Part shown: piece by piece, positions 15,017 to 61,568 of the stretch
How the letters are laid out: every line of letters starts with the position of its first letter
How positions within the stretch are numbered: the stretch's first letter is position 1
DNA from: Escherichia coli
GTDB taxonomy: Bacteria; Pseudomonadota; Gammaproteobacteria; Enterobacterales; Enterobacteriaceae
Strand: one strand, 5' to 3'
Assembly: GCF_011045215.1 (NCBI RefSeq)
Contig: NZ_CP049201.1
Length of the DNA: 64,000 nt
Translations under genes and position numbers: made by a program
The notes under the pieces: model-generated
The model's input: the letters and a program-made list of their open reading frames with translations, nothing else
The model's database searches: none
What the model was told of the DNA's origin: nothing

Positions 15017-15556
15017 TTACTGAGGTGAGTTATCCCGGGGACGGGAGTCAGGCTCACCATAAATTATCCGGTGTTTTGCCAGCGATTCCGGCATGGTATT
15101 AATACAGTAATTGATGTAGAAAATGTGAAATAAAAATGTCCATACCGGATTCATTTTTAATTCAAAGCGGAACTGTGTCAGCGCATATTGTTGCAGAGCC
15201 GTTCTGGCTCTGAAAGCCCAGATGATGGTGAGGATAATCCAGACCAGTGAGATCAGCGTGGCAATGCCGTACATGGTTTCAGCACCGCGGCTGTAACCAT
15301 AGACGTCACCGTATTCGTCGATCTGAACCGGAAAAGCCATTTTCAGCATGGCGGATATTCCCAGGCATACTGCCATCCAGATAATCATTGCAGGAGAGGA
15401 GAATCGCTGACGGGTTTCATCCATGATGGTATCCTGATATTTATACAGCCACATCAGTGGATAAACACCATATGTGGCGGCTCCCAGTAATACCAGATGC
15501 CATGTGGATGTATTCAGTTTTTCTTTTAACGATGAAATAGTGGAATCATTCATCAC
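15017..15556 (-). CDS. Hypothetical inner-membrane protein
   Basis: 179 aa with about four hydrophobic helices; no family recognised. Confidence 0.45.
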
Positions 15557-15615
15557 GGTTTCCTTATCATTAATTACGTGTGTGGAATTTTCAGAAATAA
15601 AATATTGTGTTGTTT

Positions 15616-16917: not shown

Positions 16918-16959
16918 ATTGTCTCCATACCTGTCGGAACGGCTTTGGCAGGCCGGCGA

Positions 16960-17640
16960 TCACAGGTTAAAGGTGTTGATAAGTTTATGGATGAAAGGGA
17001 AATGTGGCAGAGCGGAGATAAAACGCTCTTCAGCGACCAGACTGTGGATGTGGTCTCTCCGTTCAAACCGTTCTGATGTCAGGCTGACCGATTTGATGTC
17101 TGCCAGGGGAAAGACCCGCAGTTTTTCCTTCTGTAACGCGATCAGATACCAGCTTCCGCTGTAATAAATGAGCCGGCAGGGTTCCAGTGACGGATACCAT
17201 TGCTCAGTCACCAGCGAGATGTGGATGCACTGTCTTATTGCCAGGATGAGTTGCGAGAAACACTCGGGGAGTGTTGCAGTGATATCCGGCGCCGGTAGCC
17301 AGATAAGGCAGGGAGAGGGCTCCTGGTTGTCGGTAAGACAGGTTATCAGTCGTCCGTTCCGGAGCGGAAGTATCCGTGCGATCCCCGTATTCTGTATAAA
17401 TGAAAGCATTTCAGGGAGCGCGCCCGGGTTGCTCTGCCGTCTGAGACTGTACCGGCCATTTCTGTACTCTAAGTCCAGGTGAACCAGACGCTGATGAAAA
17501 TCGCGCTGTAAGGTACGTTCTGTAACACCAAATTCATCTGACAGTGTTTTTAGTGACAGAGATTCTCCGGCCATCAGTCGGCTGATAATGAGTGATAAGC
17601 GAACCGCCAGGCGATCATGCCGGGAACGATTATCAGACAT
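16960..17640 (-). CDS. HTH plus WYL-like domain transcriptional regulator (YfjR-like)
   Basis: 226 aa; N-terminal HTH (LKTLSDEFGVTERTLQRD), C-terminal WYL-like segment (YYSGSWYLIA). Confidence 0.65.
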   Translation of the reverse strand: MSDNRSRHDRLAVRLSLIISRLMAGESLSLKTLSDEFGVTERTLQRDFHQRLVHLDLEYRNGRYSLRRQSNPGALPEMLSFIQNTGIARILPLRNGRLITCLTDNQEPSPCLIWLPAPDITATLPECFSQLILAIRQCIHISLVTEQWYPSLEPCRLIYYSGSWYLIALQKEKLRVFPLADIKSVSLTSERFERRDHIHSLVAEERFISALPHFPFIHKLINTFNL

Positions 17641-17842
17641 AGATGTGTACTCCGTAAGAAAACATCTTTTATTTCATGATGTTATTATGCATCATGATGT
17701 TGAAAGGATGTGTCGTATCCGAATCATCAGGAATAAAATGCAGCAGAAAAAATATTCCTTTAATTATCTGATTTTTAAGCAGGGTCTCATAAAAAGAAGA
17801 ATGCTTGTTAATCCAGCGACACATCCTGTCGGCGTGAGTGTG

Positions 17843-18727
17843 TCAGAACAGACGATCCCACAGTGTGACCAGCAGGTGGATAATGCGGTCCCGGGCCTTA
17901 CGCAGAAGCTGTAACATCCAGGCCGGAAAGCTGAACCGGGCAACGGTGTCGTCAAAGCTTTTCCCGATGGCGTCACCAAAAGTTTGTTGTGCGTGTTTCC
18001 GGGTCTGTTCAGAGCGGTTTTCCCTCCGGATATGTGAATAAACCGCGCTGGTTGCCTGTGGTGGCAGTGCGTGGATCATCAGCGATACCAGTGCCGGAAG
18101 ATTCCAGCCGACAGGTGCAGCAACGGAGAGTACCGGAAATGATGAAGGGAACAGGGTTGCCACCCGGGCTGTTACTGTTGCCAGTGAGAGTTCCTGCTGA
18201 CGGGACGGGCATTTTTCTGTGTCGTTCCATTCTTCAGCAGGAAACACGCGATCGGCATGGCTGAGAACAAACAGAAAACGCGAGGGATCTGCACCTTCAT
18301 TCAGTAAAAACTGATGCATGGCAATATCAGCAGCATACGCACGTTCATCACTCCGCAGGATCCAGATAATCAGATCCAGTTCCGGTAGCAGCTGACGATA
18401 AAGTGTCCGGTATTCCTGATCATGCTGCGGTGTTTCACCAATGCCGGGCAGATCGACCAGCGTCATTCTGTGTTCACCGAGCTGCAGGGTAAGACGATGA
18501 GCCTGGCGGGTGCAGCCGTTCAGAGGATGTGTGGCGCAGATACGGGACTGAAAAATGGCATTACACAGACTGCTTTTGCCTGTGCCGGATTTACCCATAA
18601 TGCCAATCACGGGCTCGTAATGAATAACACCGTGGAGATGTTCAAGGATTTTCTGGCGAATTTCTTCAGGAAGAAACGTCAGATATGATTTCACTTGTGC
18701 GGAGAGGGAAGAATGGCTGAATGACAT
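17843..18727 (-). CDS. YeeP/YfjP/YkfA-family GTPase
   Basis: 294 aa; G1 P-loop GKSGTGKSS; first gene of the conserved leftward module. Confidence 0.8.
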   Translation of the reverse strand: MSFSHSSLSAQVKSYLTFLPEEIRQKILEHLHGVIHYEPVIGIMGKSGTGKSSLCNAIFQSRICATHPLNGCTRQAHRLTLQLGEHRMTLVDLPGIGETPQHDQEYRTLYRQLLPELDLIIWILRSDERAYAADIAMHQFLLNEGADPSRFLFVLSHADRVFPAEEWNDTEKCPSRQQELSLATVTARVATLFPSSFPVLSVAAPVGWNLPALVSLMIHALPPQATSAVYSHIRRENRSEQTRKHAQQTFGDAIGKSFDDTVARFSFPAWMLQLLRKARDRIIHLLVTLWDRLF

Positions 18728-18911
18728 ACCGTTATCCTGTTGATTTCGCTGAACCGGATCACACTAATCCGGTTTATCATTCATGTAATATGGACGTGAA
18801 AAATGATGGAATGTCTGAATTACGGACATGATTGTTAAAGTGTAATGGAGTATGAAGTGAGTTTTTCCGAACGGGAACTAATGACATACTGCGGTTTCAG
18901 GAGATGAGAGG

Positions 18912-20042
18912 ATGACCGGACGTAAAAACAAATGTGTCAGAAAAAATTGTAACAATCAGGTTTTCTCAGTAAAAATGGCAGTGGAGAAAAGACTGTGCAG
19001 AAAACATTATGAGAGGTTTTGTGAGCTCAAAAAAAGAAGAGAGCAAAATCCTGTTCACAGATTAAATGAAGCATTGCCAAGAAAGATAAAAGAACCCAAA
19101 AGTAAGAAAAAATTAGTAAAAGAAAGAGAAATCATTAACAGCAGAAAAAAACATAAACAGGAGCAGGGACCATCGCTGGCTGAACTTAATAAAAAAGTTC
19201 GTGAGATACTGAAAACTCCGGCATGGAGAACGCTGGAAACGAGAATTCGAAGAAATGGCATCACATTTAAGTCAAAAGCAGAGTTAGATGCGCTTTCTGA
19301 ACTTTATGCAATTTATTCATGGGTTTCATATTGCAAACGGGGCGATAATTATTCTGTGTGGTTTTTGAATTGTCCGGATGTAAATATAAATCTTCATGTG
19401 TGCGAATGCCGGTCTTCTGAAAGCGATTGTTATCTGCCATCCCGTTTTATTATCCTCCCAGCTCCATTAAGGCAAAAAGTAAAAAGAAAATACTCTGCTA
19501 ATTCGTCTGGGGTACCAGGACATAATGATTCAAAAAGTCTTTATAAGACAGTTTTGTCTGTTTGTGGTGGGAAAAGAGAAACCGAATTGTTCTTTTATTC
19601 ACTGCCAGTAAAGACTAATCATCATCCTTACTGGATTAAAAGTGGTGTGGTTAAAAGATTTTCTCCTGTTTTTGGTTTGTTGTTTTATGAGCAGGAAAGG
19701 TTAACAGGAGGTGTTTTTCGTTATGTGTTGATAAGGTTTTATAATACTTTTAAGGAGAATTTGTTTTTTGTTGAGATTGTCTCGTGCTGTTTTCTTGTTG
19801 AGCTTTTTCATGATATTGATTCGTTTTTTATAAATCAACGATTAAGTAAGCTTGAAAGTTTTATAGATAAGTGGAAGGAGGGTAAAGAAATCTGGATAAA
19901 AGCATATCTACAACTTATACATAATACATTGGGAATAACTGAAACAGAAAAACTCGTCAATCTATATAATTCATTTTTTACTGATAAAGTGGTTCTCTGG
20001 GATGAATCAGTAAAAAAAGTTAAGTGGATTTATGAGAAATAG
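18912..20042 (+). CDS. Hypothetical protein, Cys/His-rich basic N-terminus, AT-rich gene
   Basis: 376-aa ORF; N-terminal C-x4-C-x15-C-x2-H-x4-C then a Lys/Arg-rich stretch; no family recognised. Confidence 0.4.
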   Translation: MTGRKNKCVRKNCNNQVFSVKMAVEKRLCRKHYERFCELKKRREQNPVHRLNEALPRKIKEPKSKKKLVKEREIINSRKKHKQEQGPSLAELNKKVREILKTPAWRTLETRIRRNGITFKSKAELDALSELYAIYSWVSYCKRGDNYSVWFLNCPDVNINLHVCECRSSESDCYLPSRFIILPAPLRQKVKRKYSANSSGVPGHNDSKSLYKTVLSVCGGKRETELFFYSLPVKTNHHPYWIKSGVVKRFSPVFGLLFYEQERLTGGVFRYVLIRFYNTFKENLFFVEIVSCCFLVELFHDIDSFFINQRLSKLESFIDKWKEGKEIWIKAYLQLIHNTLGITETEKLVNLYNSFFTDKVVLWDESVKKVKWIYEK

Positions 20043-21576
20043 TACCATTTAACTGAAAGCCACCATAACGTCTTTTTGATTACATTCATGATAATGCATC
20101 TCATTTTGTTTTCGTTTTTTTGTTCAGGGAAATTTTCCGAACATCAGTGATAATGAGGGTTTTGTTGTTTTTGTTTCTGCAATGTTTGAGGGCTGTTCCT
20201 GGAGATGATTCGTTGTTTGTGAGCAAGAGGTGGTCCGCTTTTCTGGACAAGTTTTGTATTTGTTGAGTGGTGAAATGGAAGTAAAAAGAGCCCCTTTCTG
20301 GCAATGACTGAAAAAGTCAGTAGCGTGTGACAGTAAAAACTAACATAAAGTGATTATCGTATGATTATGACAATAACTTATAACTTTTATGAAAAGAATA
20401 ACAGAAACTACGAGGCCATAGCAGATTCCTGAGATCATGTTTTCTGAGGTAGAGAAAATAATTCCAGAGTAAATCTGTTCTGTTTTTAGGACAGAAAACT
20501 CCATGTTGGCTGTAAAAGTGAAAAATCAACACCCAGTATGCATGGATGTCTGAAGATGTTGAGAATGTCGGTATGATACTATATACACATATTTTACTCA
20601 GTATTTTTACTAAGCATTTCAGTAAGTGTTATACACGTATTTTCATAAACAATTCTACAAGTGTTTTCATTAAGTATTGTTATACACATTGCTTTGTCTG
20701 ATACACATCCAGTTTAGTAAATTTGTTAGTCCTGTTTTTACGATAGCTAAAATCAGTTAACGTCACTACAAAACTCCCTGTCCTGTTTAAGCAGTCAATA
20801 TGCTATTCGATTTTACTGATGTTACATTTAACCTTTTATGAGTTTTCGTGTTTTTAGTCGTTAACCTGAGACAAGTGTTTTTATGTAAAACGCAAATCCG
20901 GCTGAGATAACCTGGCGTGATTTACTGTGTGCTTACGATGATTTTGTTAAATGGTTTTATAGATGATTTTGTAGCAATGAGATTGATGAGATGATTAACT
21001 GGCCCTGGTGTTTTTTCTCAGCGCAAGGTGATTATCTTCATCATAAGGCTCTTTTCAGGAAAAGCGTGATGATTGGTTCTGGTGTTTTGATTCAGATGAG
21101 ATTTACGTTATTGATGGTTAATCGTTTTTATGGTGTGTTGAAAAGTAACGTTTTCAGGATAAGAAAATCGATTCTGATATTGGTGGTTTTTGTTCTTGTG
21201 GCGGGGTTATCTGTAAACAGGTTTTAAGCGCGCTATTCGGCTCTGTGATTGAGTTGTGTGGTTAAGCTGTAGGTTTTGGTGTTGTTGTTGATTTACAGAG
21301 CCAGAAAGCGTTCTGATTGCGTTTTTGGTGTTTTGTTTGTACGTTCTGTGGATCCGTTTCCCTTCTGACTTTTCTCGTCGTCCATGTCGTTTTTAAATCC
21401 ATTCATGCTGTTGTTGCGTGTTTTGTTGTCGTGTGCAGGATTATCTTTTCGTTACGGGACGATTCATTCCGTTTTAATCAGGAGCTATTGGCGTTGCTCA
21501 TTGGTGGGATGCCGTAAAGTTTTACCGCGGCGATTAATGATGTGAAGTCAATCCAAATCAACGGAGATCTCTCATC

Positions 21577-22308
21577 ATGAATCAACCAATACACAATGCT
21601 TACTGGTTATCCCGTTTTGAAAGTATTCTCAACAGTGACCTGGTGCAACACCTTGCCGTTTCGTTAATCCGGGTGGATTTACGTTTCCCTGAGTATATGC
21701 CTGCCAGCATCATGGATACCGATTTAGATTCAGCGGTGATTTCTCGTTTTTTCGAATCCCTGAAAGCCAAAATCCAGGCTTACCAGCGGAAAAAACGACG
21801 TGCCAACAAGCGTGTGCGTGCAACCACTCTGCGTTATTTCTGGTGTCGGGAGTTCGGCAAGATGTATGGCAGGAAACATTATCACGTGATATTACTGCTC
21901 AACAAAGATACCTGGTGCTCGCTCGGGGATTTCAGCGAACCATCTTCGCTGGCGACGCTGATCCAGCTGGCATGGTGCAGCGCTCTGCATCTTGAGCCCT
22001 GGCAGGGTAATGGACTGGTTCATTTTTCCAGGCGGACTTCTTTCCGTCAACCGACTTCATCTGATGCTCCCCCTTCTTCCGATGATACGCCTTTGCCAGG
22101 TGGATGCTCTGATACCAGGAAGGCTTCTGACAAAAAATCTGGTGGATCCGCTGTACTCTGGGTCACGCGTGGTGATGTGGAAGCGGTACAGAAAGCCATG
22201 GAGAGAGCCCTTTATCTCGTGAAGTATGAGACGAAGCAGCATGACGGTTCAGGTCAACGTAATTATGGTTGCAGTCGTGGGGCGGGGCGTCTACTGGATG
22301 GCAGGTGA
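21577..22308 (+). CDS. YagK/YfjJ-family protein (inovirus Gp2-like by recollection), paralog 1
   Basis: 243 aa; shares block pattern with the three ORFs at 26673, 27467 and 28641 (R.DL.FP..., HYH.hLL..., ALYL.KY). Confidence 0.55.
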   Translation: MNQPIHNAYWLSRFESILNSDLVQHLAVSLIRVDLRFPEYMPASIMDTDLDSAVISRFFESLKAKIQAYQRKKRRANKRVRATTLRYFWCREFGKMYGRKHYHVILLLNKDTWCSLGDFSEPSSLATLIQLAWCSALHLEPWQGNGLVHFSRRTSFRQPTSSDAPPSSDDTPLPGGCSDTRKASDKKSGGSAVLWVTRGDVEAVQKAMERALYLVKYETKQHDGSGQRNYGCSRGAGRLLDGR

Positions 22309-22389
22309 ACCCGGTAAAATGGCATCCGGTGCCTGAGCATACGTCACGTAATTAACTGTCTTGACCAACAAAATTATGGAGTAACCTGA

Positions 22390-23042
<653 letters not shown>

Positions 23043-23064
23043 TATTGCCCATTCTTGCTAATGT

Positions 23065-23102
<38 letters not shown>

Positions 23103-23478
23103 TGGCTCAGCGTATGCGCCATTTGCTTACATACGGGCTTAAACCCTAAGGGGCACCAGGCTGCATACGTTTTGCCAAATCTGTTCTCTGCTCATGATAA
23201 CGAAGAACCAGGATACAAGGTGAAAGAAGATCCTCAACGCTCAGGGGCGTAATGTTCCCTGTGTTTCATGCCCCCATCGTTTGTTGCTGTGGTGCCAGAC
23301 TTCCGAGGCACTTCCATGTCGTTTTGTTTTTGTCAGCATCATAAATGCGTCGGGACTGGTGAATGGAGATAAGCCGTTTTATTATCGGGATCAGCGAACA
23401 TACTCACAATGTCGGAATGTTTCTGAACTGAACAATAAGTTTTGTGCTGATTACAGTATGTGAAGGAGGTCAGGCACA

Positions 23479-25083
23479 ATGAATCCTGCTTATATGCAAG
23501 CCTTGCAGATATCCCCCCACTTCCCCGCCAATATAACCAGGCGATTATTTCCTGGTGAGCTTGCATTCCTCATTGAAGACTTATATGCAAGTACCCAACT
23601 TCCGCTGGAGCTCATTTTTAATACTGTACTGGCAACGCTCTCACTCTCCTGTCAGTCACTGGTTGACGTTGTTCATCCTCACACCAACATGCCGGAACCC
23701 TGCTCACTTTATCTGTTGGCAATCGCAGAGCCAGGCGCGGGAAAAACAACGATAAACAGACTGGTGATGAACCCCTGTTACGAATTTGCTGATCGACTCA
23801 TTCAACAATACGAAGAGAGAAACAAAGATTATAAGACTGAACTACAGATCTGGAATACCCGGCAGAAAGCGCTTGCTGCCAATTTAAGAAAGGCTGTTAA
23901 CCGGGGGTATCCGGGGGAACAGGAAGAAGAGGCACTGCGTAATCACGAAAGAAATAAACCGACACGTCCGGTTCGACCGAATTTTATCTATGAAGATGTT
24001 TCGCTTAAAGCGCTTGTGGAAGGGCTCAATGAACATCCTGAGGTAGGGGTTATTTCTGATGAGGCGGTCACTTTTTTCAGAAGCTATCTGAAAAATTATC
24101 CGGGCCTGTTGAATAAAGCATGGAGTGGGCAACCGTTTGATTTTGGACGGGCTGACGAGAAATACCATATCACGCCACGACTGACATTTTCGTTAATGTC
24201 CCAGCCGGATGTCTTTACGAATTATATAAATAAAAATGACGTACTGGCGTGGGGAAGCGGATTTCTTTCCCGGTTTCTGTTCAGTCAGGTTGTAAGTTCT
24301 TCCTGGATACGTGATTATACGAGAGGCGAGTTCAGAACAATACCAACCCTGGAGAAATTTCATAAAAAGATTAACGGATTTCTGTTAAGCCATAACATTA
24401 ATTCCCCCGGCACGAGCACCGAAAGGAAGACATTAAAACTTGCGAAAAAAGCGTTGGGGGAGTGGCAGGAAAACCAGATTAAGATTGAAAGAAAAACGCT
24501 TGCAGGAGGGGAGTGGGAACACATCAGAGATATTGTGCTGAAAGCAGGTTCTAATATACTGAGGATAGCGGGTTTATTCACCTGCTATTGCTATAAAGAT
24601 GCTGAGGAAATTGAATCAATTGCGCTTTTTAAAGCTATGCATCTCATGGACTGGTATCTGGAGGAAGCGAGCACAATATTTTATCCCATGTCTGAACGAT
24701 GCCAGTTTGAACAGGATAGCCGTGAGCTGTATACATGGATTATGACCCGAATCAGACAGAATAACTGGTGTGCTATCAGGAAAACAGACATTGAAAGATA
24801 TGGTCCCAATCGTCTGAGAAGAGCAGAAAAACTTACACCTGTGCTCAATCAGTTAATCTGTCAGGGGTATTTATGTATCATCAGAATGCGAACGCATCAG
24901 ACACTTTATGTTTCTGTTCGTTATAATAATGGTTGCATCCCTCCTTTTGGCGCAATGTCTTACGAATCATTTGAGATTATTCCACCCGAGAATAGCCATA
25001 ATGCGAAAACATATCACGTTAATATTCCACCGGAATTAATTCCGCCATTTGCGTTACCTTTTTCAACCCATGGCTTATTTTGA
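23479..25083 (+). CDS. YfjI-like P-loop protein (DUF3987-like)
   Basis: 534 aa; Walker A AEPGAGKT; AGGAGG RBS upstream; integrase-proximal module gene in CP4-57-like islands. Confidence 0.55.
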   Translation: MNPAYMQALQISPHFPANITRRLFPGELAFLIEDLYASTQLPLELIFNTVLATLSLSCQSLVDVVHPHTNMPEPCSLYLLAIAEPGAGKTTINRLVMNPCYEFADRLIQQYEERNKDYKTELQIWNTRQKALAANLRKAVNRGYPGEQEEEALRNHERNKPTRPVRPNFIYEDVSLKALVEGLNEHPEVGVISDEAVTFFRSYLKNYPGLLNKAWSGQPFDFGRADEKYHITPRLTFSLMSQPDVFTNYINKNDVLAWGSGFLSRFLFSQVVSSSWIRDYTRGEFRTIPTLEKFHKKINGFLLSHNINSPGTSTERKTLKLAKKALGEWQENQIKIERKTLAGGEWEHIRDIVLKAGSNILRIAGLFTCYCYKDAEEIESIALFKAMHLMDWYLEEASTIFYPMSERCQFEQDSRELYTWIMTRIRQNNWCAIRKTDIERYGPNRLRRAEKLTPVLNQLICQGYLCIIRMRTHQTLYVSVRYNNGCIPPFGAMSYESFEIIPPENSHNAKTYHVNIPPELIPPFALPFSTHGLF

Positions 25084-26672
25084 AATAAACTAACACAGAT
25101 AAAACGAAAAAAATCAACCTTCATTCGAAGGTTGGTGGTAAGGCGTTTTGCATATCCCGCATCTGTGCAAATGTTCACCATCTATGGGGCATGAACGAAA
25201 ATTTCTCTGAAAAAATCGCTACGGTAGCAACAGTAGCAGCACATGCACTATATATGTGATTTGATTTTGTTTTCATAATGACCTGCTGTCAGAGTTGGTT
25301 GAATACAGGAGTGTGCGCACTGGTGGAAGAATGGCTTTCGTTTTTTATAAAAAGAAAGTGAACAGAAATGCTATTTTTAACATGTCTGAAGCTAATCATA
25401 TAACCATATTATGTGAGTTTTTATATATAACTTTTTTTGATTCTTGTCGTGATGAGTGCCGGCGTATATGACGATGTTGGTCTCTATTATGAATAATGAA
25501 TGGTTATCAGTCTGTTACTGGCAAGAGATGCTGTTCAGGTTTCAATGGGAGATTGAAGAAAAACGATTTGATCTTTTTCTGTAAGAGAATGTTTTTCTTA
25601 GGCTTGTATTCAGGACGTAGGATTTCTTATTTTTACTCATCAGATATGGATAATTTTAATTTAGGTTTATTACTATAATTAATATCTGTCTCTTTATTTT
25701 CTATCCATCTTTGTCATTCATCTCTCCTCTCTATCTTTACACATTCCATTACTATTATTTTCATCCAGTTATACTCACTCATGTCCTTCTCCAGTCTTCA
25801 CTGTCACTATTATAACAATATCCTCTCCATCCATATCTCAATCATGACGATTGTAACTCATATGATATTCAGGTGTATTCTCTACCATTCTACTGACAGA
25901 TATTCATCTGTTCTCATGTTCAGTGAGACAGTAATTGATTTTAATCTTGTCCGTCATGCGTTATCATTGTTTAACAATAATTGTTTATCTGAAGTGTTTT
26001 AACTATTCTGGTGAACATCAATTCTTCTGTCATCACTGATTAACTGAATGTTTACTCTTTGATAAGGTGTCTATGATTCCGTCATGTTTAACAGCGCAGG
26101 ATAAACAATGAAATTAACAGGGTGAATTCCTGATTATGTCTGTTCGTTTCTGATTATCTTTTATGTTAAACAAAATGAAAATTATCCATCAATGGTATGT
26201 TTCATTCTGGTACCGTGTACCCGTTAACGTTCATATCTTGAACATGAGTTGTTTTTAACAGATTAAATGAGAGTGTATGATTTTATCAGGTTACAGATAT
26301 GTGTTGGCCTTGTACACGTTTTTTCAGACTCACTGAGAGCAAGTTTGTAGTTTATGATGTTATTGGTCGTAATATGTTTCTTAATCTCCTGGTAGTGGGG
26401 GTTTATTGCGTATTTTGCAGTGTTTCATTGTGTTTTATTGAATCTGTATTTTTTTACTCCTCGTTTATCTCATTTCTTTAGTCAATGCCATCAGATGACC
26501 CATTCCCTTCAGCACAACGTTGCGTGTCGTTAATAACCGACGTATCCATTCTGTTACAGCATGCCTGATAAATACCGTCTGTAAGTTATTACCGTTTTAG
26601 ATCTGATTATGAGCGAAAGCATTAATTCGCTTACAGCACTTAAAACGTCATTAACTTTCAGGAGTCATCAGC

Positions 26673-53500: not shown

Positions 53501-53770
53501 ATGCGATTAATACCACCCGTGACAAGAACAGTGTATAATATTAATAACCTACATTTGTTTGCAGATGGTTGTAAGATTATAAAAAACAGCCTGAAGGAAC
53601 AAAGGGAACAATGTGGTCAGATAGCGTTTTCAATAAATGAAATAGCACGAATAACGGATATGAATATCCGCCATGTCTGTGTATGCTTAAGTATTCTGGT
53701 TTGCGCTGAGGTGATGAGCTGTATTACCAATGAATGTGGGGAAAGAAAGTGGTTTCTTGTAACGAAATAA
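53501..53770 (+). CDS. PapI/FaeA-like small winged-helix regulator (putative)
   Basis: ~89 aa, GGAGG RBS; C-terminus ...RKWFLV like the PapI-family ...YWFLK ending. Confidence 0.45.
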   Translation: MRLIPPVTRTVYNINNLHLFADGCKIIKNSLKEQREQCGQIAFSINEIARITDMNIRHVCVCLSILVCAEVMSCITNECGERKWFLVTK

Positions 53771-53806
53771 AACTATAAGAGAAGGGGACTACACAGAGGG
53801 GGGATT

Positions 53807-54022
53807 ATGCATTTAAAATATGATGGTTGTGAAGTAATCATTAAATTTATGGCGGAACGTGATACAACATTATTACCATTAACTACACGACAGATTGCGG
53901 ATGGTTGTGCCATGTCTGTTTATGCTGCGCGTTATTATTTACAGAAACTCAGCAAGCTGCATGTTGTTGGGTCTGACAGAGTCGGTAAAGGTAGTGCTGT
54001 TCGGTGGTATTTGCAGATATAA
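53807..54022 (+). CDS. PapI/FaeA-like small winged-helix regulator
   Basis: 71 aa; VYAARYYLQKL...AVRWYL matches the PapI block DYQARYYLLLL...ATYWFL. Confidence 0.55.
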   Translation: MHLKYDGCEVIIKFMAERDTTLLPLTTRQIADGCAMSVYAARYYLQKLSKLHVVGSDRVGKGSAVRWYLQI

Positions 54023-54176
54023 TGAGTGTATCGCAGGAGTGTGTGTTTTGTTGTGAATTTCTGAGCTTGTAGTAAATATACGAACATAATTTTTAAAATT
54101 TAAACATTTAATATTAAATACCAGAGCTTTTTTTTGTGTAATAACTCAGAGGGGATTATATGGTCCGGAGGCTGTA

Positions 54177-55019
54177 TTGTATATGACTATGGCTGATGCG
54201 CGTCATTTACCTGTATTAATGTATCACCATATCAGTAATAATCCAGGGCTGGTGACGCTTTCACTCCGGACTTTCCGTGAGCAGATGCAGTGGCTGGCTG
54301 AAAATGGCTGGAAAACTGTTTCGGCAGCTGAAATGGAATTCTTTTATTGTGGCGGGAAACTGCCACGCAAAAGCGTCATGCTGACCTTTGATGACGGCTA
54401 CCTGGATAACTGGTTTTATGCCTTTCCGGTGTTACAGGCATTTGGTCTCCGGGCTCATATCTTTCTTGTCACGGGGCTTATCGGTGATGGTCCCGCCCGG
54501 CAACATGAAGAAAGCGGGGGGCGTCATATGTTTTCTCACCGGGAATGCGAGACCCTGATTGCACAGGGGCGGGCTGATGATGTCATGCTGCGCTGGTCTG
54601 AGGTCAGGGAAATGAGCCGGAGCGGGCTGGTCGAGTTTCATCTGCACACACATACCCACCGTCGCTGGGATCTGCTGGATAACGTCCGTGAGCCGTCCGT
54701 CTTTCTTGAGTCCGATATTCTTCTCGGACAGGCGCGAATGAGGCAAATGACCGGTTCATGCAGTCGTCATTTATGCTGGCCGGAGGGGTATTACAATCCG
54801 GACTATATCAGGGTGGCGGAGAAACTGGGATTCACCCACCTCTACACCACTGAGCGGCGGATGAATTCACCGGTGGCGGGTCCCCGGCGTATCGGGCGTA
54901 TCAGTACAAAGGAGCGTGAACATTCCGGCTGGCTGAAGCGCCGTCTCTTTTATTACACCACTCCGTTTTTTTCATCGCTTCTGGCCCTTCATAAGGGGCC
55001 CCGGCTGAATGATGACTGA
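54177..55019 (+). CDS. Polysaccharide deacetylase-family protein (Shf-like)
   Basis: NodB-type motifs (LMYHHI, MLTFDDGY); followed by glycosyltransferase and VirK-like genes as in shf-capU-virK loci. Confidence 0.7.
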   Translation: MYMTMADARHLPVLMYHHISNNPGLVTLSLRTFREQMQWLAENGWKTVSAAEMEFFYCGGKLPRKSVMLTFDDGYLDNWFYAFPVLQAFGLRAHIFLVTGLIGDGPARQHEESGGRHMFSHRECETLIAQGRADDVMLRWSEVREMSRSGLVEFHLHTHTHRRWDLLDNVREPSVFLESDILLGQARMRQMTGSCSRHLCWPEGYYNPDYIRVAEKLGFTHLYTTERRMNSPVAGPRRIGRISTKEREHSGWLKRRLFYYTTPFFSSLLALHKGPRLNDD

Positions 55020-55022
55020 GAG

Positions 55023-56126
55023 GTGGTGATGAAAATTCTTTATACCGAATCCTCTCCCAATATTGGTGGTCAGGAGTTGCAGGCGCTGGCTCAGATGGCT
55101 GCAATGCAGCGTGCCGGGCACAGTGTCATGCTGGCATGTCGCGAAAACAGCCGGATAGCCGCGGAAGCGGTCAGGCAGCAGACTGCGGTTACATATATTC
55201 CTTTCAGGAACAGTCTGCATTTTTCATCAGTCTGGCGACTCCGTCGTCTTGTTCTGACTTTCCGGCCGGATATGGTGGTGTGTCACAGCGGACATGACAG
55301 TAACACAGTGGCTCTGACCCGGGCCACGCTTACCGGAGGGGCGGGCAGGTTCAGTATTGTCCGTCAGAAGACATATCTGACCCGAAAGATGGAGGTGTTT
55401 TCGCTGAATCACTTCTGTGATGCCGTTGCTGTCCCCGGACAGGCGATGAAGGAGGCGCTGCAGGCTGCGGGATGTACAAACACCATCCGGGTGGTTTCAC
55501 CGGGATTTGATTTTGATGCAATCCGGGAAGCCATGAGCATGCCCCTGCCGGAACATGTTCGTGAATGGCTGGAAGCGAGAGCACCTCATCCGGTCATTGT
55601 TCAGATCGGAATGTTACGTCCGGAGAAAGGCCTGGATTTCATGCTGAAAACACTCTTTCATCTGAAACGTGAGGGAGGCCAGTTTCACTGGCTGATAGTC
55701 GGTGGCGGGCGTCCGGAAGAGGAGCGCCTGTTACGCCGTAAAATTCATGCGCTGGGGATGGAAGGGGGTGTACTGATATGCGGTTATCTTACGCCGGTAT
55801 ATCCGCTCTACAGGGTGGCTTCCCTGATGGTGATGCCTTCCACCTGTGAATCATTTGGTATGGCTGCAGTGGAGGCTGCTGCATGTGGTGTGCCGGTAAT
55901 GGCCAGTAATACAGGAGGGTTATCTTCCGTCATTCATCATGAGCGGACCGGTATTCTGCTCCCGCCGGATAACCGGCAGGCCTGGCTGGAAGCCCTGCGT
56001 GCGTACCTGTCCGCACCGGCCGGGTTCGCGGAAATGGCGGCCATGGCCCGCAGGGATGTGATGAGTCGTTTCAGTATGGAGGTAACCCTTGACAGGCTGT
56101 TGTCGCTGGGCTGTCTGCCCTTCTGA
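55023..56126 (+). CDS. GT4-family glycosyltransferase (CapU/RfbU-like)
   Basis: 367 aa; C-terminal GT-B donor-binding region (ESFGMAAVEAAACGVPVMASNTGG). Confidence 0.7.
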   Translation: MVMKILYTESSPNIGGQELQALAQMAAMQRAGHSVMLACRENSRIAAEAVRQQTAVTYIPFRNSLHFSSVWRLRRLVLTFRPDMVVCHSGHDSNTVALTRATLTGGAGRFSIVRQKTYLTRKMEVFSLNHFCDAVAVPGQAMKEALQAAGCTNTIRVVSPGFDFDAIREAMSMPLPEHVREWLEARAPHPVIVQIGMLRPEKGLDFMLKTLFHLKREGGQFHWLIVGGGRPEEERLLRRKIHALGMEGGVLICGYLTPVYPLYRVASLMVMPSTCESFGMAAVEAAACGVPVMASNTGGLSSVIHHERTGILLPPDNRQAWLEALRAYLSAPAGFAEMAAMARRDVMSRFSMEVTLDRLLSLGCLPF

Positions 56127-56207
56127 TGTTGCCTGTACAGGAGACGGGTATTTTGTTTTTGAGTTATGGACTGTGTTATCTGATATCTGACATACCATCT
56201 GAATATT

Positions 56208-57149
56208 ATGAGTAATCTGTCTGTTATTTCGCTTGTTGTGAAACTGATGACTGGCCGTACTTTCCACAGAGGGAAGTGGGAGGACAGAAAGTTTCGTTAT
56301 AAATTTCTGCTGCGTTGTTGTTGTCATCCTCTGATCACAACCCATTATTTTCGTGCCCTGTGTGAACTGAGCGATATCGACGATCTTCTTGAGGTCAACC
56401 CGACCTTACCGGCCAAGATTCACCGTCCCTATCTCTTCCGGAACAGTCGCACCGGATTCCGGGTACAGGCAGTTCTTGACCATTATCATCTTATCCGGAG
56501 CCTTCCGCAGGAGGTCAGGCGAATGCTGAACGTCAGCCGGGAAACATCGCTTGTCCGCACCGAAGGGAAGGACGGCAGGTGGCTGGATATCAGTTGTTCC
56601 CCCTGTGGCTTTGACCGCGAGGGGGAGCTGATGCTGATACTGCGTTTTAATGGTGAGGTTATCACCCGTATTTCCTTCACACTTCTTTACTGGCAGGGGC
56701 ACCGGATGGTGTTTGTCGGGGGATTGCAGGGGCCTGCAGCGGGGACGGGCACAGCGATTATCCGGGAGGCCACCCGTGCCTGTTATGGCCTGTTTCCGCG
56801 CCGTCTGCTCTGTGAGGCACTGAGTGTGGTGGCAGGGATGTGCGGAGCCGGGGGGATAGTGGCTGTCAGTGAGGACAATCATGTGATGCGGCAGTTGCGT
56901 TATTTTTACCAGAAAAAGGGCCGGTTTGTTGCCCGTTACAGTGAGTGCTGGAAGTCTGCCGGAGGAAAATATTTTGATGGGTTCTGGTACCTGCCTCCGG
57001 AACTACCCCGTAAAGATGCCGGTGAAATCCCTGCAAGAAAACGGGCTGAGTACAGAAGGCGAAATGCCCTGCTTGATGAGGTACGGCGAGGGCTGATGGC
57101 TGCACAGCAGAATGGCTGTGATTTCAGAAACACAATAACGCTGATGTAA
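56208..57149 (+). CDS. VirK/YbjX-family protein (DUF535-like)
   Basis: 313 aa; size and position after the deacetylase and glycosyltransferase; family recalled, not verified. Confidence 0.55.
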   Translation: MSNLSVISLVVKLMTGRTFHRGKWEDRKFRYKFLLRCCCHPLITTHYFRALCELSDIDDLLEVNPTLPAKIHRPYLFRNSRTGFRVQAVLDHYHLIRSLPQEVRRMLNVSRETSLVRTEGKDGRWLDISCSPCGFDREGELMLILRFNGEVITRISFTLLYWQGHRMVFVGGLQGPAAGTGTAIIREATRACYGLFPRRLLCEALSVVAGMCGAGGIVAVSEDNHVMRQLRYFYQKKGRFVARYSECWKSAGGKYFDGFWYLPPELPRKDAGEIPARKRAEYRRRNALLDEVRRGLMAAQQNGCDFRNTITLM

Positions 57150-57154
57150 CCAGG

Positions 57155-58108
57155 ATGATGATGAAAAGCTGTATTCAGGCGGCCCTGATGGCTGCTGTTC
57201 TGCCGGGGGTATTCAGTCACCAGGCGGGGGCTGCTGAAGTGTCTGCTGCTCCGGAAGTCAGACGTGAACAGTCTGTACTGCCGTTTTTCCGGGAGCTGGC
57301 AGAAGGTTATGAACTGCCGGAACCATTTGGTGTTAATCTGAATTATATGCAAATCCGGCAGGGGATATCGGTGGACAGTATCCGGTTTTCCGGGTTACAC
57401 CTGGGCAGACTTCCTCTGGATAATATTGTACATATTGATGCCGGAAAGACCCGACAGAAAAGTCATACCGGAACACTCCGGTTTGATGCATGGGTGTTTC
57501 CTTTTATGAATCTGTATGGGCTTCTGGGAAAAACAACCGGACAGTCTGTATCAGATATCCGGGTCCGAACACCTCTGTTTACCGGCGGGGCGTTTCCGGG
57601 GGCCGGTACACAGAACCTGAAGTTCCGTCTGGATTTTCAGGGAACCACATATGGTGTCGGCACCACCCTGGTGGGCGGGATGAATAACTGGTTCACCTCG
57701 CTGGATGCCAATTATACGCAGACACGCTTTGATATTCTTGATGGTCATATTGATACTGTCACATTCTCACCCCGGGTGGGGTATTACTTTGATGTCCCTT
57801 CGGTACCGGTACTGCAGAGTTCTGCGGGCAGAATGAGTGTATGGGTCGGGGGGATGTACCAGGATGTTGAACAGCGCTTCAGGGGTAAACTGAATGACCT
57901 GAATATGCCATCACCTGCACTGCAGGCGGGGTTGTCACAACTGAATAAAACGGGGGATGCGCGTTTTGATGTCAGGCAGCATCTGAAAAAACCGTGGAAC
58001 ATGCTGGCTGGCATACGCTATGACCCCAGCCGGCACTTCAGTCTTATCGCCGAAGCGGGGTTTGAAAAGCGGAAAAGTTTTTTTGTTTCCGGTGAATACC
58101 GGTTCTGA
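57155..58108 (+). CDS. Putative outer-membrane beta-barrel protein
   Basis: Signal peptide, alternating beta-strand pattern, C-terminal aromatic residue (...GEYRF). Confidence 0.55.
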   Translation: MMMKSCIQAALMAAVLPGVFSHQAGAAEVSAAPEVRREQSVLPFFRELAEGYELPEPFGVNLNYMQIRQGISVDSIRFSGLHLGRLPLDNIVHIDAGKTRQKSHTGTLRFDAWVFPFMNLYGLLGKTTGQSVSDIRVRTPLFTGGAFPGAGTQNLKFRLDFQGTTYGVGTTLVGGMNNWFTSLDANYTQTRFDILDGHIDTVTFSPRVGYYFDVPSVPVLQSSAGRMSVWVGGMYQDVEQRFRGKLNDLNMPSPALQAGLSQLNKTGDARFDVRQHLKKPWNMLAGIRYDPSRHFSLIAEAGFEKRKSFFVSGEYRF

Positions 58109-58305
58109 ACCTGGAGAAGACAGCCCGGTGGATACGGCGATAATATAATTATCGCCGTATCAGGATAAATACCATGATTAGATTCAGCGGGTGCACAAAA
58201 AAGAAATAATGCCGGGCTGACGATAATAAAATTTAATATATTAATATCTTTGTGGAATATTTGTTGCAATGTGTATGTTATTCCCGCATGCACAGGAGAT
58301 TATCT

Positions 58306-58557
58306 ATGTGTGACAAAACCATGAAACGCAGGGACAATACCGCATTATATCAGGATGACTGTGAAGCACTGCTCCTCTGGATGAAATTCCGGGAGGATAA
58401 ATATGGTGAAGTCTTGTTTCGTGTTATTGATATTGCGTACGGACTGGATATGTCTGTGCGCCAGTGTTGTATCTGTCTGAATTTTTTGTATGAAGCCGGA
58501 CTGGTGGATTACGACGAAAATAATAACAGGTTGTCCAGACAGTGGTTTCTTGTCTGA
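58306..58557 (+). CDS. PapI/FaeA-like small winged-helix regulator (putative)
   Basis: ~83 aa from the ATG at 58306 (AGGAG RBS); paralogous to 53501 (DMSVRQCCICLNFL...QWFLV). Confidence 0.45.
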   Translation: MCDKTMKRRDNTALYQDDCEALLLWMKFREDKYGEVLFRVIDIAYGLDMSVRQCCICLNFLYEAGLVDYDENNNRLSRQWFLV

Positions 58558-58649
58558 CAAAGACAGGACGGAAATCTGATATCCGGTAATATCTGAAACG
58601 GCATTCATATATTACTGCGGAGTGAATTTCATAACCGGAATAATGCAGT

Positions 58650-59795
58650 ATGGGATATATTACTGACAGACAACAGAAAATAAAATGGTTGTTATTTTTG
58701 TTGTTATGGTGTTGTCAGGCGCAGGCCGCACTTCCGCTTCCTTTATGGCTGGACGGGAAGGAAATGACAACGAGTGCCTGGCCGGTTATGCCTCCGTTAT
58801 CCCCCCCGGAGGGGTTACGGGCCTGCTGTGCGTTTGGGTATGACCTGGGGGTGAGGGTGCCGTGGCTCCGTACACCATTGCCATTCTTTCATCTGGACAA
58901 TGTGGTGGAGGCCGGCAGTACCGGGGGACACCATTACAACGACAGTTTTGTTTCCGGCATGTTGTCTCTGACAGGGGGCGGAAGAGAGCATAACGGTATC
59001 ATTTTCACCACGCAGGGGGGATTTGTTGATACGGCGCATGTCCGTGATACGGCGGATATGACGGTGTTTATTTTTACCCGTCTGTGGCCACGTCTGGGGC
59101 AGGCGTTTGTGTTGTCTCCGGGCAGAGATGAACTGGCACAACGGCGGCTGGTTTTCCGGGCATTCACTCCCCCGTCTTCCGTCCGGGACCGTTATGTGCT
59201 GGCCGCGGAAATATCAGCCCGTCTGGCATACCAGCTGGCGGTATGGCATGAAATTGCACAGTGGTACGGCTTCGAATCCGTACCGGGTTATCCTGAAACT
59301 GTGTCGGCATTTTCACCGGAGGATCTGTGGTCCAATCTTCTGGGGGCAAGAGTGGCCCTCTCTCTTATCTTCAGCGGACAGACGGCAGACAGGCGAATGT
59401 ATGAAACGGCCATGCAGAATGCGCTGAAACAGGTGCTGGTTCATCTGGGAGGTGGCGCGGTGTCCCGTACCCGTTTTCAGCTCCGTATGCTGGACAGGGT
59501 GTGGTGGAACAGCCGGTGTCTTCTGCCGGACAAGTGGCTGGTGATAAAGCGCAATTATGATGTTGATGCGGACCGGCTTCCCGTATCTGTTCCGGGGGGC
59601 GATATGAAGCCACTGCGCCTGTCGCTCCCTCTCAGACCGGAAGCCGCGGTGCTGGCGGAATTACAGCTCTGGCCCGGACAGGACATGAAGCGTCTTCCGG
59701 TACCGGAAGGGTATTACACCGGGAAGGATTTTGCGGGGCTGGCGTCCCGGGCCCGGGCCGGGGACAGTGTCTCCCGTGACAGATTCTGTCCGTGA
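58650..59795 (+). CDS. Hypothetical exported protein
   Basis: 381 aa; N-terminal hydrophobic signal-like segment; no family recognised. Confidence 0.45.
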   Translation: MGYITDRQQKIKWLLFLLLWCCQAQAALPLPLWLDGKEMTTSAWPVMPPLSPPEGLRACCAFGYDLGVRVPWLRTPLPFFHLDNVVEAGSTGGHHYNDSFVSGMLSLTGGGREHNGIIFTTQGGFVDTAHVRDTADMTVFIFTRLWPRLGQAFVLSPGRDELAQRRLVFRAFTPPSSVRDRYVLAAEISARLAYQLAVWHEIAQWYGFESVPGYPETVSAFSPEDLWSNLLGARVALSLIFSGQTADRRMYETAMQNALKQVLVHLGGGAVSRTRFQLRMLDRVWWNSRCLLPDKWLVIKRNYDVDADRLPVSVPGGDMKPLRLSLPLRPEAAVLAELQLWPGQDMKRLPVPEGYYTGKDFAGLASRARAGDSVSRDRFCP

Positions 59796-59829
59796 GAGGG
59801 TGTGTTTTGGGTTGCAGGGAGTGGATGTT

Positions 59830-60708
59830 ATGAACATTCAGGTGGAACATCACAGGGGAGCATGGCGTCTCATTTTACTTCTGGCAGGTATTGTCATACC
59901 GGTTTACGGGTACAGTCATGAACTGTCAGGCACTTATGCCAGAATATTAAGTATGCATTTTTCGGATGACATCAGTGCTTCCGGATTGCGGACAGAGGGA
60001 GGGGGGAAATATTCCCGCTGGACTGTTCCCTGGCACAGCGAATGTCTGTATGACACGGGGATGGTCTGCTCCGGGGTGTACCTCAGGGGAAGTTATATTG
60101 ACCTGAAAGGGGATGTTGATGATGGTGCCGTGGTTCACTGGCGGTCATATGGCACGCTTGTGGGGACAGATGTCACCGTCAGGTTGTCTGAACATGTTTC
60201 AGTCAGGGGAGGTCTGGGCGTGGGATATGCCCGGGTTCGCAACATGAGTCGCGGGATGGAAGGTGATGAAAATTATGAAGAGGTGCTGGGGTGGGAGCGA
60301 AAAAATGCCCTGATTGTTTCCCCCGAAATCAGCAGTACGATAACGTCCGGTAATTTTACCCTGAGTCCGGGTCTCTCATTTTTATCCCTGCGTGAATTCT
60401 CATCATCCCGTCATGATATTGGTTCGCACGCGGGAAGTTATTCCGTCAGGATGACTTATACGTTCCGGGATGTGTTCCGTGTGATGGGGCGCGGAAGTGA
60501 TGTCATTGTGGAAAACAATACCGGAGGTTTTTACGGTCCGGGCTGGAAAGAAGACCTGGGATTCAGTCTGGTGAATGAGACGCAACTGTTGTTCAGTATT
60601 CCCTTCTGTGTTGGTGGTCATGTTTTCTCTCTGCGTGCCGGGCCGGGCTTCATAAAGGGGAACGGGGGAGTCAGAGGGGTGTCATTTTCTTTTGGTCTGA
60701 AAACATGA
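59830..60708 (+). CDS. Hypothetical exported beta-rich protein (possible outer-membrane protein)
   Basis: ~292 aa from the ATG at 59830; signal-like N-terminus; Gly/Ser/Tyr-rich alternating pattern. Confidence 0.4.
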   Translation: MNIQVEHHRGAWRLILLLAGIVIPVYGYSHELSGTYARILSMHFSDDISASGLRTEGGGKYSRWTVPWHSECLYDTGMVCSGVYLRGSYIDLKGDVDDGAVVHWRSYGTLVGTDVTVRLSEHVSVRGGLGVGYARVRNMSRGMEGDENYEEVLGWERKNALIVSPEISSTITSGNFTLSPGLSFLSLREFSSSRHDIGSHAGSYSVRMTYTFRDVFRVMGRGSDVIVENNTGGFYGPGWKEDLGFSLVNETQLLFSIPFCVGGHVFSLRAGPGFIKGNGGVRGVSFSFGLKT

Positions 60709-60728
60709 TGTGAAATCAGAAAAACAAC

Positions 60729-61568
60729 ATGAATGATAAAAAGACAGGGACGGCGCTGATACGGAAAATGACCATTGACAGGATTATCGAATATATCGAA
60801 CTTCATCTTGAAAGTGGTAAACGGATGAGCATTCATTCACTGAGTGCTTATTCCGGTTACTGCCGCAGACATCTGCAGCGTATTTTTCTGCTGGAGACGG
60901 GAATGCGGCTGGGCGAATATATTCGTCGCAGGCGACTGAGTCGGGCTGCCCTGCTCTGTCGCCTGTCGTTACGTGGGTTTCAGGATATTGCCTGTAGTCT
61001 GGGATTTGATTCCCAGCAGACATTTAACCGTGAATTCAGGAAAACAGCCGGCGTGACGCCCGGACAGTACCGCAGCCAGCCGGAATGGCGGCTTTTGCCG
61101 CTGGCAGGTCGTGCCGGCATCTCTTTTTCTGTTCCGGTCCCGGAGAGGGTTCATCTTCCGGAAGGCCGTATTGTGGGACGACCACTGACGTTTTCCGGCC
61201 GTATACATGAGGTCCGGGATAACGGGGCGGCGGCATTTTCCGAAAGTGTGTTTGCCTGTCAGCAGGAGGCTCAGTGGTTGGTGGTGACGGCAATAACGCC
61301 GGTGGGAGGCAGGAAAGGGGATTATGAGGTCCGTTGTGGTGTGGGCGCACCGGATAACCCGTGCGGAAACGTCTTCTCATGGGCCGAGGGGGATTACCTG
61401 TCTGTCACGTTTGAGACCACAACGACCACCCATGCGGCCCGTGCAGATTACATTTATATGAACATCCTGCCCGCTCATGGAGTTGTCCGTACGCCCGGGG
61501 TGGACATACTCGTCTTTCGTTACCATGAGGAGCGGGTGTTCTGTACGCTTTACATCCCGGTCAGTTAA
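60729..61568 (+). CDS. AraC-family regulator, Rob-like (N-terminal HTH, C-terminal GyrI-like domain)
   Basis: 279 aa; N-terminal AraC HTH pair; C-terminal ~150 aa effector-binding-like domain. Confidence 0.65.
   Translation: MNDKKTGTALIRKMTIDRIIEYIELHLESGKRMSIHSLSAYSGYCRRHLQRIFLLETGMRLGEYIRRRRLSRAALLCRLSLRGFQDIACSLGFDSQQTFNREFRKTAGVTPGQYRSQPEWRLLPLAGRAGISFSVPVPERVHLPEGRIVGRPLTFSGRIHEVRDNGAAAFSESVFACQQEAQWLVVTAITPVGGRKGDYEVRCGVGAPDNPCGNVFSWAEGDYLSVTFETTTTTHAARADYIYMNILPAHGVVRTPGVDILVFRYHEERVFCTLYIPVS

Follow-up and report, generated by a model that had tools for sequence, protein, structure and literature searches.

A canonical FaeA/PapI-family gene and two divergent, cysteine-rich candidate relatives downstream of a P-like pilus operon on an Escherichia coli plasmid

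The locus considered here poses the question of where a pilus operon keeps its PapI-type regulator when none is encoded next to the switch, and of how many such regulators it has. The DNA analyzed is a 64,000-nucleotide stretch of Escherichia coli (contig NZ_CP049201.1; hereafter the window) in which a P-like chaperone-usher pilus operon, headed by a papB-like gene, is followed by three small open reading frames (ORFs), named ORF1, ORF2, and ORF3 in the order of their occurrence. A preliminary description of this DNA had proposed that all three encode PapI/FaeA-like winged-helix proteins. The window is a segment of an E. coli IncF plasmid: its positions 53000 to 59000 match plasmid A of the bovine E. 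coli strain C5 (NZ_CP010123; IncFIB/FIC, 214 kb) at 99.6% identity. In the reading that we favor, and hold to be moderately probable, ORF2 is a PapI/PefI-type co-regulator, ORF1 and ORF3 are diverged relatives of it, and the operon is under a Pap-type Dam/Lrp switch.

All three ORFs are intact and lie on the plus strand where the preliminary description had placed them, and each is preceded at a distance of 6 to 8 nucleotides (nt) by a Shine-Dalgarno sequence (AGGAGG for ORF1, GAGGGGGG for ORF2, and AGGAG for ORF3). The third adhesin-like gene occupies 52539-53483, and ORF1 starts 17 bp past its stop codon; ORF2 follows after a gap of 36 bp, and ORF3 lies 4.3 kb further downstream, behind genes for a deacetylase (shf-like), a GT4 glycosyltransferase, a VirK protein, and an outer membrane protein (OMP). 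The arrangement that had been described, two genes in tandem after the adhesin cassette and one after the shf-like cluster, agrees with these coordinates (Table 1). The predicted proteins end in ...RKWFLVTK, ...VRWYLQI, and ...RQWFLV, respectively. Profile hidden Markov models (HMMs) of three groups of sequences (relatives of ORF1 and ORF3, a "bridging" group defined below, and canonical FaeA/PefI/PapI proteins) were run against every six-frame ORF of 40 amino acids (aa) or more, 5161 in all, from the window and the other loci gathered up to that point. All matches were to PapI-like genes, with no unrelated ORF among them, and in the window the only matches were ORF1, ORF2, and ORF3, which argues that the PapI-like pattern at these three places is not due to chance. 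Upstream of the papB-like gene, the same scan detected nothing PapI-like among ORFs of this size, again as had been described.

By its profile match, ORF2 is clearly a protein of the FaeA/PapI/PefI family. It matches the Pfam FaeA model (PF04703) with an E value of 3.7e-10 and 40.4 bits, against a cutoff of 20.7, and the prokaryotic genome annotation pipeline (PGAP) names it "FaeA/PapI family transcriptional regulator." The only PDB sequences that it matched with phmmer are PefI (2JT1; E 3.4e-5) and PapI (2HTJ; E 1.7e-3), and its third helix (ARYYL) keeps the R-x-Y-L motif of the family. For this protein, the proposed likeness to PapI and FaeA is borne out by direct profile search.

The standing of ORF1 as a gene deserves more attention. 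It is unannotated in RefSeq NZ_CP010123 and went uncalled by gene callers in six other assemblies despite being intact in them, in what looks like a systematic annotation gap. These omissions, together with the AT-rich DNA in which it lies, would suit an artifactual ORF or a pseudogene in decay, in which case ORF2, and perhaps ORF3, would alone be functional. We find this scarcely credible. The AGGAGG sequence stands at an optimal distance from the start codon, and ORF1 is full-length and intact in every homologous locus, with 100, 95.6, 91.5, and 79% nt identity in independent loci and with a ratio of nonsynonymous to synonymous substitution rates (dN/dS) of 0.38 (0.51 for ORF3). Its protein has a paralog in ORF3 and receives a confident AlphaFold2 fold from an alignment of six sequences, all of them from the ORF1/ORF3 group. 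Furthermore, in loci L006 to L008, where a tandem like that of ORF1 and ORF2 lies behind a different, Pef/F18-type operon, the detectable DNA similarity to the window around the tandem is limited to ORF1 itself. The ORF3 protein is listed by the index in 609 blocks of the assembly collection. Judging from their sequences, we consider both ORF1 and ORF3 to be real genes.

How these two genes relate to the FaeA/PapI family had to be approached less directly. They are paralogous (81 residues aligned at 30% identity; BLASTP E 8e-13), and a word-indexed homolog search returned close relatives only (2, 5, and 2 matches). A profile made of ORF1, ORF3, and their close homologs was used for an exhaustive search of 1.84 billion representative proteins, which gave six proteins: the two clusters to which the queries belong, the bridging proteins P0008, P0009, and P0010 (E 2e-5 to 1e-4), and P0011, a protein with two helix-turn-helix (HTH) domains at the E limit of 1e-3. 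Each of the three bridging proteins passes the Pfam FaeA cutoff, with 22.8, 32.2, and 20.7 bits, respectively. Profile-profile comparison with hhalign joined the ORF1/ORF3 set to nine canonical FaeA/PefI/PapI sequences at 95.6% (P 1.2e-8; 67 collinear columns); of the nine, all but the PapI sequence came from databases. The ORF1/ORF3 set was joined to the bridging set at 98.7% and the bridging set to the canonical set at 98.5%. One hundred column-shuffled controls reached a score of at most 15.1 and 1.7%, compared to the real score of 45.3. Among the six-frame ORFs, the bridging HMM recovered ORF3 (E 3.7e-17), ORF1 (2.5e-6), and ORF2 (1e-6), as well as PefI (1.7e-8), and the HMM of the nine canonical sequences recovered ORF3 (21.8 bits; E 4e-5). 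A joint alignment of the three groups shows common features in a D-x-C in helix 1, an I-A in helix 2, an L..L in helix 3, and a terminal W-[FY]-L. The transitive and profile-profile searches thus support the view that ORF1 and ORF3 are remote homologs of the FaeA/PapI family. What would be mildly new is a rare, cysteine-rich PapI/PefI branch that lies beyond the reach of the current Pfam and NCBIfam models.

The predicted structures agree with this placement as far as structure can. AlphaFold2 models of ORF3 and ORF1 (predicted local distance difference test scores of 84.7 and 81.7, respectively) both show a winged helix with the order H-H-H-E-E, three helices and a beta-hairpin, and both are single-domain winged-helix proteins in the size range of about 70 to 90 aa, of the type of PapI (2HTJ) and PefI (2JT1). 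In a Foldseek search of the PDB, the best compact structural match of ORF3 was PefI 2JT1 (TM scores of 0.70 and 0.80; root mean square deviation [rmsd] of 2.2 Å). The Foldseek matches of ORF1 and ORF3 were to generic winged-HTH families at E values of about 3e-3. Because Foldseek does not separate PapI and PefI from other winged-HTH families, these results support the fold class and not the family.

Several observations weigh against the reading that we favor. Neither ORF1 nor ORF3 has a direct match to PF04703, even at E ≤ 10, or to the NCBIfam FaeA model, and the canonical-set HMM that recovered ORF3 missed ORF1 at E < 0.01 among the 5161 ORFs. Run against PDB sequences, the ORF1/ORF3 profile retrieved neither PapI nor PefI, the top match being the TFE winged helix (E 0.34), and the Foldseek matches of ORF1 were to generic MarR, Zur, and Zalpha winged helices, with PefI outside the top 50. 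In helix 3, ORF1 (VCVCL) and ORF3 (CCICL) have C-x-C-L instead of R-x-Y-L, which is present in all the aligned canonical and bridging sequences except those of loci L002 (A-L-Y-Y-L) and L011 (A-L-H-C-L); with this replacement, the canonical DNA/Lrp interface may be lost. The gene module that contains ORF3 also occurs in other E. coli and Escherichia fergusonii plasmids after a YadA-like adhesin gene and an AraC gene, without a P-like operon or its GATC switch. Lastly, the Pef-type operon beside the closest paralog of ORF3, on plasmid B of strain C5, has an upstream region without any GATC.

Some of these points would fit a reading that makes ORF1 and ORF3 small winged-helix proteins of a generic sort, for example regulators of plasmids or mobile elements or antitoxin-like proteins, that have no part in pilus regulation and resemble PapI by convergence or at the level of the fold. 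The lack of FaeA matches, the generic character of the Foldseek matches, and the movement of ORF3 with a nonfimbrial module all point that way, and so would the weak match to YmcE_antitoxin (E 0.01, below the cutoff) and that to MC6, although these two and a Brr6-like match are subthreshold and were treated as noise. This reading appears very unlikely to us. P0011 aside, the exhaustive search reached, outside the queries' own clusters, only proteins that are Pfam-positive for FaeA; the hhalign alignment is full-length and collinear and far above the shuffled controls; the D-x-C, I-A, and W-[FY]-L motifs are common to ORF1, ORF3, and the family; and the ORF1-like genes found always adjoin a FaeA gene behind a pilus operon. 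The proposed PapI-likeness of ORF1 and ORF3 failed on direct profile search, then, and survives in the form of a remote relationship, seen in the exhaustive profile search, in hhalign, and in the AlphaFold fold.

The change in the recognition helix belongs to a wider pattern of cysteines. Three are invariant across the ORF1/ORF3 subgroup (Cys19, Cys55, and Cys57 of ORF3, equivalent to residues 24, 60, and 62 of ORF1), and two of the three form the C-x-C of the recognition helix. One explanation that builds on this pattern takes ORF1, ORF3, or both not to co-activate the switch but to be antagonists or sensors: PapI-like decoys that titrate Lrp or the FaeA protein, or else cysteine-based modulators that respond to thiols or metals and would link the expression of the pilus or the envelope module to redox or metal status. 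The invariant cysteines, the C-x-C-L in the recognition helix, and the conserved tandem with a canonical FaeA gene are all consistent with such a role, and the cysteine-dependent metal sensors CadC, SmtB, and CzrA are among the best Foldseek E values for ORF3, but with high rmsd or partial coverage. Likeness to ArsR/SmtB in Foldseek is generic for winged helices, however, and the ArsR-type C-V-C occupies a different helix. Compared to ArsR/SmtB repressors, dimeric proteins of about 100 to 120 aa with a cysteine-containing metal site, ORF1 and ORF3 have the C-x-C but no match to the Pfam HTH_5/ArsR profile. On balance, we judge this explanation to be quite unlikely. A related proposal is that ORF1 and ORF3 form an unrecognized cysteine-rich branch of PapI/PefI proteins whose members would not be ordinary Lrp co-regulators but modulators responsive to thiols or metals, or antagonists of the FaeA partner. 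It is a long shot; if true, these proteins would supply Dam/Lrp pilus switches with an input from the environment or with a second bistable layer, and ORF3 would tie the deacetylase/GT4/VirK envelope module to the switch circuitry.

The reading of ORF2 as a co-regulator accompanied by two diverged relatives can also be examined in the light of gene order. The preliminary description had pointed out that the three genes lie away from the canonical position. This is true but not odd, as it corresponds to a PefI-type layout, in which a PapI-family gene comes 3' of the structural genes, on their strand, and the papB-like gene has no such gene upstream of it. We found this layout in the window, on plasmid pSLT, and in loci L002, L006 to L009, and L025. 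On pSLT, pefBACD-orf5-orf6 precede pefI, after which come srgD, srgA, srgB, rck, and srgC. In L002, a related chromosomal operon of E. coli (84% DNA identity in the usher region), a FaeA gene stands at the 3' end and is followed by a DsbA gene. The tandem of an ORF1-like gene and a FaeA gene is found behind the same P-like type of operon in L009, in addition to the Pef/F18-type operons of L006 to L008 mentioned above, and a PapB-like regulator gene and paired GATC sites accompany both the window tandem and the homologous tandems of L006 to L009.

The bridging proteins, too, sit at the 3' ends of pilus clusters. P0008 is encoded next after an MrpH_C-type adhesin gene, P0010 (L025, 9001-10008) behind a Pef-type operon, and a bridging protein of Salmonella Abortusovis behind fimbrial genes, while the locus of P0009 has the order PapB-FaeA-DsbA-P0009-Ail-AraC-deacetylase-GT4-VirK. 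The P0010 gene is followed by one for a 115-aa protein with a weak GerE/LuxR match, so that the pefI-srgD pairing is repeated outside Salmonella pSLT.

The closest known counterpart of ORF2 in position is PefI of pSLT, likewise a small FaeA/PapI winged-helix protein whose gene stands 3' in a chaperone-usher operon of a plasmid. The pef operon resembles that of the window in its papB-like 5' region, with a GATC pair 102 bp apart, and in the further small regulators, OMPs, and AraC gene that lie downstream of pefI. The two systems differ in that ORF2 and PefI are only about 33% identical, in the operons themselves (P-like in the window, with PapH/PapJ-type subunits and three adhesin paralogs, and Pef-type on pSLT), and in the partner gene: in the window, the partner ORF1 precedes the FaeA gene and is PapI-like, whereas the pSLT partner SrgD is LuxR/GerE-like. 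ORF1 was considered as an equivalent of SrgD and rejected, as SrgD is a 116-aa protein of the LuxR/GerE type and Pfam, at E ≤ 10, gives ORF1 no GerE match.

PapI of uropathogenic E. coli (2HTJ) belongs to the same family as ORF2, and an inverted ACGATC pair lies upstream of papB in both systems. The third helices of ORF1 and ORF3 lack the R-x-Y-L motif of PapI. FaeA of K88/F4, the founder of PF04703, has a profile that ORF2 matches and that ORF1 and ORF3 do not, and the faeA gene is part of the regulatory DNA at the 5' end of fae. The arrangement around papI differs from that of the window as well: papI is divergent, lies immediately upstream of papB, and has its own PapB-activated promoter (PMC11316696), whereas the window genes are 3' and probably on the operon transcript.

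The window has a Pap-type switch motif of its own upstream of the papB-like gene. In T-rich DNA, an ACGATC (43143-43148, with the GATC at 43145-43148) faces a GATCGT (43247-43252, with the GATC at 43247-43250), and the GATC-to-GATC spacing is 102 bp, which is also that of GATC1028 and GATC1130 (GATC-dist and GATC-prox) in pap. The pattern ACGATC-N(85-115)-GATCGT occurs a single time in the window, where 0.04 occurrences are expected by chance. The PapB-like genes of L002, L006 to L008, L009, L011, and pSLT pef likewise have a GATC pair at 102 bp upstream of them. Another pair with this spacing, just upstream of the ORF1-like gene in L009 and L010, does not lie in an ACGATC or T-rich context and was set aside as a chance match. 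Plasmid B of strain C5 has, before the PapB-like gene of its Pef-type operon (L003, 2300-2620), a T-rich, Pap-like region without GATC (...TTTTATGACCTTTTT...), and the sequence suggests that this switch may have lost Dam control.

A further possibility, that a remnant of papI upstream of papB had been destroyed by the IS66-family insertion sequence (IS) there, found no support, there being no PapI-like ORF of 40 aa or more at that place. The fimbrial regulatory DNA is shared with L009 from about position 42712 onward; beyond this point, the window has the IS66 element and L009 has an IS3-family element. Two lineages with unlike insertion sequences thus share the DNA only up to about 42712, and the conserved module has no upstream papI, although an ancient loss of that gene is possible. 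The edge of the fimbrial module (window 42576-42712; L009 1-390) appears to be an IS hot spot.

ORF3 differs from the tandem in its surroundings. It is a fixed part of a block with the order deacetylase-GT4-VirK-OMP-ORF3-DUF4056-hypothetical-AraC (54177-61568), which is found also in L016 and L021 and in many assemblies. Related deacetylase, GT4, and VirK genes come as a trio in L011, behind a region like pefI/srg. A dedicated local regulator of this envelope module, with no role in any pilus, would be expected to keep such a fixed place, including in the plasmids without a P-like operon, and could be served by the AT-rich region of about 200 bp, without GATC, that ORF3 has upstream of it. Against this explanation, the relatives of ORF3 (P0008 to P0010 and the protein of locus L004) are encoded at the 3' ends of pilus operons, the module already has an AraC-type regulator, and on plasmid B of strain C5 an 81%-identical copy of ORF3 lies apart from the module, 0.5 kb behind the Pef-type operon. 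We regard a purely local role as unlikely. The plasmid B copy was also considered as proof that ORF3-like genes occur at the 3' ends of Pef operons, but this argument is weakened by the finding that the copy is contained in a 665-bp fragment made up of the 3' end of the OMP gene and ORF3.

With ORF2 as the co-regulator and ORF1 and ORF3 as its diverged relatives, a mechanism can be proposed from better-studied systems. PapI increases Lrp's affinity for the distal sites, and the state is locked when Dam methylates the unprotected GATC (PMC11316696, PMC9820224). FaeA of K88/F4, according to the account of Huisman and de Graaf (1995) given in PMC12388093, is a local regulator that modulates the control by Lrp of a Dam-sensitive fimbrial promoter, and pefI is homologous to papI but acts as a repressor (PMC12388093). 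By analogy with these proteins, we infer dependence on Lrp, a direction of regulation, feedback, and targets in trans. ORF2 would most likely bind Lrp-DNA complexes at the ACGATC sites, bias which GATC escapes Dam, and so set the ON or OFF state. Its effect could have either sign, because PapI is a positive regulator and PefI and FaeA are negative ones (PMC12388093). ORF1 and ORF2 abut the structural genes and so are probably made from the operon transcript; in that case, they would be made when the operon is ON and would feed back on the switch. In a scan of positions 53000 to 58800, promoter and terminator predictions were not enriched relative to shuffled sequence.

With their altered recognition helix, ORF1 and ORF3 could act as modulators or antagonists and not as co-regulators of the ordinary kind, and ORF3 would most likely be a stand-alone small regulator or modulator within a movable envelope module, which it may serve. 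The ORF1-ORF2 pair might also have further targets, motility genes for instance, in the manner of PefI-SrgD. StdE and StdF of the Salmonella std operon are 3'-encoded fimbrial regulators. PapX and MrpJ (MarR-like or HTH proteins) are regulators encoded distally in pilus operons that act on motility (PMC3224193, PMC9820224), and PefI-SrgD represses flagellar class I expression (PMC3224193). Like ORF1 and ORF2, PapX/MrpJ and StdE/StdF are encoded distally in pilus operons; they are made when the operon is ON and act on another locus or feed back on its own switch, as ORF1 and ORF2 would. PapX, MrpJ, StdE, and StdF are larger, however, and belong to unrelated families, and no sequence relationship of these proteins to ORF1, ORF2, or ORF3 was found with Pfam. 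Action in trans on the GATC switch and cross-regulation of other fimbrial loci, both raised in the preliminary description, would be plausible by analogy with PapI, PefI, and PefI-SrgD.

Table 1. Coordinates of the pilus operon, its putative regulators, and neighboring features in the window
Feature	Position	Strand	Basis or annotation
IS66-family element bounding the conserved fimbrial module upstream	40242-42575	-	ORFs and annotation
Pap-type switch region	43143-43252	+	Inverted ACGATC and GATCGT in a T-rich stretch before the papB-like gene
papB-like regulator gene	43292-43603	+	Pfam PapB PF03333, E 6e-28; PGAP, PapB/FocB family regulator
P-like chaperone-usher operon	43714-53483	+	ORF list, PGAP annotation of the near-identical plasmid, Pfam families in L009
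Three tandem adhesin-like paralogs of about 315 aa, closing the pilus operon	50579-53483	+	ORF list
ORF1, 89 aa, predicted divergent Cys-rich PapI/PefI-like winged-helix protein	53501-53770	+	Unannotated in RefSeq
ORF2, 71 aa, canonical FaeA/PapI family regulator in PefI-type 3' position	53807-54022	+	PF04703, PGAP
shf-like polysaccharide deacetylase, GT4 glycosyltransferase, VirK/DUF535, and 317-aa OMP-like genes	54177-58108	+	PGAP; Pfam, weak OMP_b-brl
ORF3, 83 aa, predicted second member of the divergent PapI/PefI-like subgroup	58306-58557	+	Annotated "hypothetical protein"
DUF4056 protein, hypothetical protein, and AraC-type regulator (rest of the module)	58650-61568	+	Pfam

The surroundings of the three genes are summarized in Table 1, where the coordinates of the papB-like gene are those of the longest ORF, its true start being uncertain. 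The P-like operon encodes, in this order, the major subunit, a PapH-like subunit, usher and chaperone, a PapJ-like protein, a pair of minor subunits, and three adhesin-like proteins, of which only the first has a (weak) Pfam match to MrpH_C. In the otherwise near-identical operon of L009, a single 335-aa adhesin of the MrpH_C type replaces the three paralogs, which suggests that the adhesin cassette is exchangeable or expandable. Just upstream of the IS66 element, the window encodes a 774-aa protein with an AraC-type HTH and a neighboring EAL-domain protein (35928-39878), which might be linked to the control of c-di-GMP or adhesion. Farther upstream, at about 15000 to 26000 (NZ_CP010123, 165 to 176 kb), SIR2-family, ATP-binding, KTSC, and SLATT-domain genes lie amid IS fragments, and this island looks, by annotation, like anti-phage defense cargo.

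The Pap-type Dam/Lrp switch is the textbook case of a bacterial epigenetic switch and is usually described with one PapI-type protein. Here, a plasmid lineage that is common in ruminant E. coli has a canonical PapI-type gene, a probable divergent paralog beside it, and a third copy in an envelope module. In practical terms, one of these genes is absent from the RefSeq annotation and another is hidden under the label "hypothetical." If the divergent copies do modulate the switch, they would give it a second locally encoded input and would provide a handle on the cross talk between pili, envelope modification, and perhaps motility.

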